Positions 16,891 through 17,089 are shown, numbered from the stretch's first letter. The stretch: DNA of 64,000 nucleotides from an uncultured Verrucomicrobiae bacterium (GCA_963818965.1 CAWFUG010000002.1:32001-96000), one strand, 5' to 3'. Translations and numbers: made by a program. Notes: generated from the sequence alone by a model not told the origin.

Positions 16891-16919
16891 TTGGGTCAAA
16901 ATCGGATCCAATCTATAAT
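16891..16919 (+). promoter_or_regulatory. Sigma70/66-type promoter inside the IS110 left end
   Basis: TTGGGT-17 nt-TATAAT. Confidence 0.55.
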
Positions 16920-16925
16920 TCCTCC

Positions 16926-17085
16926 TCGTAATGTAGAGGCCGAGCTATCATTGGCGCTTGTAAGCCCGGCACAGAGAATGGCACGCAAAAGGTCACGTAA
17001 GCATCGCTGGTGAGATCGTAAGATCATCCCGTTTAGGAGAATGTTGGCTTAACACCTTTTGCACATTGCACTTAACCCAAGGAAT
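16926..17085 (+). ncRNA. Putative IS110 bridge RNA (boundaries approximate)
   Basis: CACAGAG (16970-16976) equals target left + core; TTAGGAG (17033-17039) equals donor left + core; both followed by AATG; CATC (17002-17005) is complementary to target right. Confidence 0.6.
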
Positions 17086-17089
17086 TTTC

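Follow-up and report, generated by a model that had tools for sequence, protein, structure and literature searches.

RNA guides for IS110-type recombination, called bridge RNAs or seekRNAs, became known in 2024, and predicted examples now number in the tens of thousands. We analyzed an insertion sequence (IS) of the IS110 family in a stretch of 64,000 nucleotides (nt) from an uncultured Verrucomicrobiae bacterium (GCA_963818965.1, CAWFUG010000002.1:32001-96000; hereafter the window), in which an initial annotation had proposed bridge-RNA-like guides upstream of the recombinase gene. Positions are counted from the first nt of the window, and all features described lie on its plus strand. The system to which we mainly compare this locus is IS621. 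In the accounts of IS621 on which we draw (Durrant et al. 2024, PMC11208160; Hiraizumi et al. 2024, PMC11208158), a loop of the RNA is ordered as stem, linker with a G, left guide, stem-loop, G, right guide, linker, and stem. The left guides of IS621 have the sequence of the top strand plus the CT core, and because its right target guide, G77-G80, is described as pairing with positions 11 to 8 of the top strand, that guide ends in AG.

We conclude, with a probability of roughly 85%, that positions 16825-18470 of the window are an RNA-guided IS110-family insertion sequence with a genuine bridge RNA. Much of the design described for IS621 (PMC11208160 and PMC11208158) recurs here. Both elements have a recombinase with a DEDD/RuvC and a Tnp domain, and both have a long non-coding left end, 5′ of the gene, that encodes (here, by prediction) an RNA in which one loop serves the target and another the donor. 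The guides pair with opposite target strands and take in the core, the short target guide here only in part, and a G precedes each guide. The long guides on the 3′ side of the loops end in AG, as is implied for the right guides of IS621, and the target is a hairpin repeat. A natural RNA-guided element directed at a genomic repeat, as the initial annotation had proposed, is supported both by the covariation of guides with their DNA and by the copies of the repeat. Two of the four guides named in that annotation were right, whereas the other two, and the loop as it was drawn, were wrong.

The limits of the element came from a search of its own genome (2.24 megabases, Mb, in 12 contigs). We found one further full copy, on contig C9, which sits in a different copy of the repeat and is identical, letter for letter, to 16826-18470 (1645 nt). 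In empty copies of the repeat, the sequence of 16780-16824 abuts that of 18468-18536 with a 3-nt overlap, and only GAG is common to the two flanks. Because the empty repeats join both flanks and the second copy is identical over 16826-18470, the element is 16825-18470, i.e., 1646 base pairs (bp) including the right-hand copy of the core, inside a genomic hairpin repeat. It was inserted after CACAGAG without any duplication beyond the core, and it terminates in TTAGGAG. The left end comprises 265 nt of non-coding DNA 5′ of the gene (16825-17089), and the right end comprises the 23 nt past the stop codon (18448-18470). By sequence and by comparison with homologs, the last part of the right end reads AAGTTAC, then TTAGG, then the core AG (18457-18470).

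The target is CACAGAG/ATGG, with the slash at the insertion point, and it lies within a hairpin repeat of about 115 nt that is present in dozens of copies. Its left half, CACAGAG, is at 16818-16824 with the core AG at 16823-16824. The right half, ATGGAAAAC, begins the remainder of the hairpin repeat (18471-18540), on whose opposite arm the same site occurs on the other strand. The right flank of the C9 copy differs slightly, reading AGGGGAAAC instead of ATGGAAAAC. There are 903 CACAGAG sites in the genome, against ~273 expected at uniform composition, and 67 perfect 11-nt targets (CACAGAGATGG), against ~1 expected. The repeat family itself (16780-16824 plus 18471-18540; loci L003-L030 in this genome) contains a long palindrome and is represented by 113 matching pieces in the 2.24-Mb genome. 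We noted that every copy of this repeat bears the IS target on both arms, in opposite orientations.

The fold of the single sequence, a search of Rfam, and a promoter scan were uninformative, and the meaning of the string matches therefore had to be decided by comparison. We assembled 129 homologous loci, 49 from species genomes and the best 80 of 277 from metagenomes, with protein identities of 42-79%. The closest homologs are from chlamydia-like bacteria, and the majority of the 129 are from Acidobacteria. They share a common architecture upstream of the gene, NNCC-G-(7 variable nt)-AYUGGUGC-loop-GCCCG-(8 variable nt ending AG)-NNUGGNN, which is followed by a second module built alike. A strict pattern picked up the first module in 102 of the 129 loci, and the elements implied by these homologs are 1606-1763 bp long.

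Two of the variable segments match the DNA at the ends of each element. In the window, CACAGAG at 16970-16976 is identical to the left flank (16818-16824), and TTAGGAG at 17033-17039 is identical to the right end plus core (18464-18470). To set a background for recurrence, another locus's different guide was used as the control. Among 84 distinct loci with sufficient upstream sequence, 63 have the last 7 nt of the first segment again 90-170 nt upstream (control: 1.4 ± 1.0, maximum 6), and the guide position holds 25 distinct 7-mers among these loci. The second segment recurs 1380-1620 nt downstream in 60 of 68 distinct loci (control: 2.5 ± 1.2), and in the homologs this match always comes directly after a conserved GTT(T/A)C. 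Hence, (G)CACAGAG (16969-16976) is the left-target guide and (U)UUAGGAG (17032-17039) is the left-donor guide, the latter reading the element's own right end. Both 7-mers had been picked out in the initial annotation, and all of the strings that it named are found where it placed them. The AATG that it had observed after both 7-mers (16977-16980 and 17040-17043) is also there; it combines a linker shared by both modules, AAU (shortened to AA in module 2), with the bases that open the following stem. The covariation of guide and target across homologs, which had been set beforehand as a test, was found for CACAGAG and TTAGGAG but not for the other two proposed guides, CATC and CCCAAGG.

We next consider the structure that holds these guides. 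An alignment of 18 close relatives bears out a two-module RNA in which each module is an internal loop between two helices. The structure of 29 pairs was drawn from these same sequences; 97.7% of its cells are paired, versus 35-45% with partners slid by 1-3 columns, a control that for this reason flatters the structure, whereas the 11 pairs that are changed on both sides are independent of that. The covariation score of the structure is 0.372, versus 0.218 ± 0.013 in shuffles, none of which (0/500) scored as high. The target-binding module (16938-16983) consists of a basal stem (16938-16941/16980-16983), G16942, the right-target guide (16943-16949), AUU, a hairpin (16953-16958/16963-16967, with C16955 bulged), G16968, the left-target guide (16969-16976), and AAU. 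The donor-binding module (16985-17062) consists of an outer stem (16985-16993/17054-17062), a stem (16995-16997/17042-17044), a 5′ strand (16999-17005), GCU, a stem (17009-17013/17027-17030, with U17011 bulged) that carries a hairpin (17014-17017/17022-17025) with a GUAA loop, G17031, and the left-donor guide (17032-17039).

Individual pairs vary in the manner expected of helices. In the basal stem of module 1, pair 15-64 is UA in 5 sequences, AU in 4, GC in 2, and CG in 1, and is unpaired in 6 of 18, the window included; the next pair is GC in 9, AU in 5, and GU in 4. The closing pairs of both hairpins are G-C, G-U, or A-U only, with no mismatch in the 18 relatives (pair 30-48: GU 8, GC 7, AU 3; pair 91-114: GC 14, AU 4). 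The donor outer stem is 97.5% paired with 4 pairs changed on both sides, and in the 3-bp stem of module 2, pair 77-128 is AU in 10 sequences, GC in 5, and GU in 3.

A third guide emerged when RNA columns were scored against the DNA to the right of each element. A single diagonal stood out with an excess of 53 relative to shuffled pairings, whereas off-register diagonals reached ~12; along it, the 7 variable nt that open module 1 pair with the top strand, beginning at the core G and running outward. In this fixed register, 266 of 444 pairs form over 74 distinct guide-target pairs (220.4 ± 9.0 in shuffles), and with one sequence per distinct guide (n = 40) the count is 147 of 240 (109.5 ± 6.2); in neither test did any of 10,000 shuffles score as high. 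This covariation supports AGCUAUC (16943-16949) as the right-target guide, whose CUAUC would pair with G plus ATGG on the top strand (18470-18474), one of the pairs being G-U, and which is mismatched at one position with the target of the C9 copy. The right-target guide thus lies 5′ of the left-target guide, and the left-donor guide is likewise on the 3′ side of its loop. Unlike in the described IS621 RNA (PMC11208158 and PMC11208160), where the guides for the left flank and the right end are on the 5′ side of the loops, here they are on the 3′ side.

The two long guides also define the core. In the 62 loci in which both were correctly called, their last two bases agree, as AG/AG in 61 loci and as AA/AA in 1. 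Because both end in the same two letters, we take the shared dinucleotide as the core, the first base of which is A in all 62 loci. The initial annotation had the core as different from the CT of IS621, which holds for the coding strand, where it is AG, but not for the other strand, where AG is CT; the descriptions of IS621 (PMC11208158 and PMC11208160) differ from our locus in this strand assignment. The simplest reading is that the same IS621-type loop is used with a CT core on the strand opposite to the gene, because the core then becomes CT and the long guides end in AG. The invariant core base A (T on the other strand) would correspond to the near-invariant T of IS621, and the variable base G/A (C/T on the other strand) to its less conserved C. 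We also considered a circular permutation of the IS621 loop and dropped it for the simpler opposite-strand reading; a literature search on circularly permuted bridge RNAs in IS110 elements found nothing relevant.

A sigma-70-like promoter is predicted at 16891-16919, inside the left end, with TTGGGT (16891-16896), a 17-nt spacer, and TATAAT (16914-16919). A consensus promoter scan made no call for this sequence, the -35 box matching at only 3 of 6 positions. Among the homologs, 41 of 89 distinct loci have TTGNNN-N16-18-TANNNT in the 80 nt that precede the first stem, versus 3.7 expected from mononucleotide shuffles. The distance from the end of the -10 box to the first stem is 16-18 nt in 9 loci, including all six chlamydia-like ones displayed, and 22-24 nt in 32. 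This conserved position bears out the promoter of the initial annotation as a plausible one and supports a predicted transcription start near 16926. In the IS621 reports cited above, the promoter forms at the circle junction; here, the conserved one is within the left end. No hit in the element's own genome corresponded to a junction of its right end with its left end, as a circle or a tandem array would have, and a scan of the left end returned no terminator between the structure and the gene.

We suggest the following mechanism. Transcription would start near 16926 from the promoter at 16891-16919, and the RNA would run at least to 17062. Each module follows one plan: stem, G, short guide, AYU, hairpin, G, long guide ending in AG, AAU, and stem. 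Module 1 would read the insertion site, with CACAGAG, the sequence of the top strand left of the cut, pairing with the bottom strand, and the short guide (16943-16949) pairing with the top strand right of the cut. Module 2 would read the element itself, since UUAGGAG (17033-17039) equals the right end plus core. A recombinase bound to this RNA would then exchange strands at the AG dinucleotide, that is, at CT on the strand opposite the gene. The recombinase, encoded in two frames, would most likely be made as one protein through slippage at a run of nine A residues (A9).

Several observations weigh against this reading. First, those on the RNA itself: on its own, the sequence does not fold with unusual stability (z = 0.43, with 123 of 200 shuffles doing as well); Rfam at a permissive threshold gave 10 weak matches over 16500-18900, none of them in the left end and none at the gathering score (the microRNA-like ones, at 18467-18538, are artefacts of the hairpin repeat); and the transcription of the bridge RNA and the ends of the transcript are predictions. 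Second, those on the guides: the left-flank match is missing in 21 of 84 loci, including short contigs and several close relatives, and the right-end match in 8 of 68, at least 5 of which are wrong calls by the search pattern. The shuffle tests overstate independence, as related sequences share ancestry. Of the two core bases, the short target guide pairs with the G alone, a further departure from IS621 as described (PMC11208158 and PMC11208160). Third, a right-donor guide was sought by scanning four RNA regions against the left end, and no diagonal stood out. The segment where this guide is expected (16999-17005) has no complementarity to left-end positions 1-9 beside the core, beyond the core G. 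CCCAAGG (17076-17082), which the initial annotation had tentatively taken for this guide, is complementary to CCTTGGG (16825-16831) but overlaps the ribosome-binding site and is not a conserved guide: a comparable 7-mer occurs in 2 of 59 distinct loci, in both of which it overlaps the Shine-Dalgarno sequence, and at its place the closest relatives carry unrelated, ordinary Shine-Dalgarno-like strings. Fourth, only 2 copies of the element are found against 67 perfect targets. Given that the copies are identical, any activity would be recent at best.

For the donor loop, the IS621 reports (PMC11208158 and PMC11208160) describe a guide that we did not find here, namely one for the left-end bases beside the core. 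The 5′ strand of our donor loop, AAGCAUC (16999-17005, including CATC), occupies the place of the right-donor guide by alignment. Elements with identical RNA differ in the bases at left-end positions 1-7, and complements of the 5′ strand, sought anywhere in the element, gave no consistent partner. We did find a copy of this strand in the same sense. The left end folds into a terminal hairpin (16830-16874), in which GGAAGGGG (16830-16837) pairs with CCCCTTCC (16867-16874), and the homologs that were folded have an equivalent hairpin of different sequence after the first 7 nt of their left ends. Just 3′ of this DNA hairpin, and 12 nt 5′ of a GAAACT/GTAACTT motif, lies CATCATC (16874-16880), an internal left-end site that covaries with the donor-loop 5′ strand: with one sequence per distinct guide (n = 16), 67 of 112 positions are identical, versus 45.4 ± 4.1 in shuffles, and 0 of 10,000 shuffles scored as high. 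Examples of RNA strand and left-end site are CGAUAAC/AGATAAC, UCAUGUC/ACATGTT, and AAACAUC/CAACATC. The donor 5′ strand could pair with the bottom strand at this internal site, the same strand that the other donor guide reads. The two same-sense segments (16874-16880/16999-17005) covary across subfamilies.

The GTAACTT of the motif (16886-16892) is a sub-terminal inverted repeat of AAGTTAC (18457-18463) and overlaps the -35 box. In acidobacterial relatives, GAAACT is paired with AGTTTC at both equivalent places, and the repeat thus differs between subfamilies. As read from the sequence, this putative inverted repeat is 7 bp long (16886-16892/18457-18463) and leaves a left extension of 61 nt and a right extension of 7 nt.

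The recombinase is encoded by two open reading frames (ORFs). ORF1 (17090-17866) carries the RuvC-like DEDD domain (PF01548, E = 4.8e-21; NF033542 positions 2-212, 176 bits), and ORF2 (17821-18447), in the -1 frame, carries the Tnp domain (PF02371, E = 9.5e-13; NF033542 positions 218-341). The two products abut on this one profile, "IS110 family RNA-guided transposase" (343 positions). Similarity of ORF1 to IS621 (chain 8wt6_A) is weak and confined to the N-terminal half (E = 0.0017); the catalytic E of MESTG and the D..D of KSDVID are in register with IEATG and KTDTVD of IS621, the first D and the Tnp serine being outside the alignments. The C-terminal half had no match among solved structures. 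The weak similarity and the division into two frames set this recombinase apart from that of IS621 as reported (PMC11208158 and PMC11208160).

The division between two frames might mean that the copies in this genome are dead, the frameshift being inactivating and the guides relics of a formerly active element. The initial annotation had likewise treated the frameshift as a defect. The gene is in two frames in both copies, the 2 copies are few against the 67 perfect targets, and a close relative, L066, is decayed with several frame changes. The overlap of ORF1 and ORF2, however, contains an A9 run (17836-17844) that is conserved in relatives and is a candidate -1 recoding site. Of 19 chlamydia-like elements, 14 (the window included) shift once to the -1 frame, between both domains, while 4 have a single frame and 1 has several changes. 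All 14 split elements, which come from separate assemblies, have an overlap of 19-79 nt with an invariant AT-A9-C/G. A relative with ten A residues reads in one frame. A second A9 run in the window (17805-17813) is not conserved. The acidobacterial relatives that were checked encode the recombinase in a single frame (458 and 476 residues). In insertion sequences, an A9 run that is conserved where two frames overlap has been described as the mark of productive transcriptional slippage (Baranov et al. 2005, PMC1088944). As in the insertion sequences treated there, we see two overlapping frames, a conserved A9 in the overlap, and one frame when the run has another length; unlike those, ours belongs to the IS110 family, which that paper does not name, and slippage in our case is a prediction. 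A literature search found no report of slippage in IS110 elements among the papers listed. In addition, the two copies are identical over 1645 nt. We therefore consider it improbable that the copies are dead. Recoding at A9 is likely to be programmed, as the conservation of the run suggests; -1 ribosomal frameshifting on A_AAA_AAA would yield the same product as slippage.

A different arrangement of the guides was drawn in the initial annotation, with an IS621-like layout in which CACAGAG is on the 5′ side and CATC (17002-17005) on the 3′ side of a target loop closed by CCGGC (16966-16970) and GCTGG (17006-17010), and TTAGGAG and CCCAAGG form the donor pair. Every one of these strings exists, CATC is complementary to GATG (18470-18473) over the right junction, and CCCAAGG complements the first 7 nt of the left end. 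CCGGC/GCTGG can form in 77.8% of cells in the alignment, but this level was reached by 70 of 500 shuffles, the fifth pair is unpaired in 16 of 18 sequences, and one cell is changed on both sides. This helix also competes with both hairpin stems, which show compensatory changes without mismatches. The region of CATC, before the second UGGUG, lacks right-target covariation (a maximum excess of 14.9, versus 53 for 16943-16949), and CATC aligns instead to the last 4 nt of the donor-loop 5′ strand, which is conserved within subfamilies. CCCAAGG-like matches are confined to 2 of 59 loci, both over the ribosome-binding site. We regard this layout as very improbable. Finally, it is hardly credible that the left-end structure is a mere messenger RNA leader or regulatory element with accidental copies of a common genomic word at its flanks, for although CACAGAG occurs 903 times in the genome and no terminator separates the structure from the gene, the same loop positions in homologs from other phyla hold 25 different 7-mers, each with a match in the left flank of its element, the second loop likewise agrees with the right end of the element that carries it, and a leader would have no reason to track flanks.

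A bridge RNA with the modules described above shares features with both branches of reported seekRNAs. In the IS1111-type seekRNAs of ISEc11, ISPa11, and ISKpn4, as presented by Siddiquee et al. 2024 (PMC11187229), the complement of the top strand is 5′ of the segment that pairs with the bottom strand, and the elements have sub-terminal inverted repeats; the order recurs in our element, and the repeats have a putative counterpart in it. There, however, the RNA is downstream of the gene, whereas here it is upstream and only 23 nt follow the stop codon. The repeats there are 11-13 bp with extensions of 7 bp and 3 bp, whereas here they are 6-7 bp with a 61-nt left extension that contains a hairpin. 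The seekRNA of ISEc21, an IS110-type element in the same report (PMC11187229), resembles ours in that it comes from a non-coding region 5′ of the gene and matches both target strands, but its bottom-strand match is 5′ of its top-strand match, the reverse of the order here. ISPpu10 of Pseudomonas putida (bioRxiv 10.64898/2026.03.19.712850) is an IS110 element that, like ours, targets a multi-copy palindromic repeat, beside a DNA stem-loop; the preprint gives it a CT core, pairing by the logic of IS621, and a promoter at the junction, none of which we observed as such here. A further 2026 preprint (bioRxiv 10.64898/2026.10.21.760802) presents 86 covariance models together with 32,190 predicted bridge RNAs, a good many of which depart in structure from IS621. 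The family described here may already be contained in that preprint or in the supplements of bridge-RNA papers.

Taking these comparisons together, we tentatively propose, as a possibility that we regard as rather doubtful in its entirety, a hybrid IS110 lineage in chlamydia-like, acidobacterial, and other hosts that jointly has five features: an RNA encoded 5′ of the gene, like that of the IS110 group; a guide order and sub-terminal inverted repeats like those of the IS1111 group; a CT core opposite the gene; a donor-loop 5′ strand that would read not the bases beside the core but a site inside the left end that a conserved DNA hairpin would bring near, so that this strand and the other donor guide address one and the same DNA strand; and a recombinase whose synthesis would be limited by programmed slippage at A9.

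A few observations concern the neighborhoods of these elements. In L042 (L042 and L045 are contigs of Chloroflexi metagenome-assembled genomes), the sequence flanking on the left (…GTTAC TTAGGAG) looks like a related element's right end and that flanking on the right like a left end, and in L090 the right end is followed directly by left-end-like sequence. L042, L045, and L090 may be tandem or nested insertions, or elements aimed at the junction of a sister element. Relatives at ~55% protein identity are found on plasmids (records H2-H6), with 389 records, 61 of them from Citrobacter, annotated just as "IS110 family transposase." Immediately left of the insertion in the window, a 480-residue ORF (15293-16735) has no Pfam match at E ≤ 0.001.

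One more natural bridge RNA is in itself ordinary. The family to which this one belongs is, however, clean and well sampled, with the target guide naturally reprogrammed to 25 versions across 84 loci. Its guides stand in the opposite order to those of IS621 even though the RNA is upstream of the gene, which bears on how the layouts of IS110 and IS1111 relate to each other. The conservation of the A9 run is a caution against calling IS110 recombinase genes pseudogenes for being split alone. The donor loop departs from the IS621 rule for the left end, and if it is true that the hairpin and the internal site take part in donor recognition, this would be a second mode by which such elements recognize their ends.

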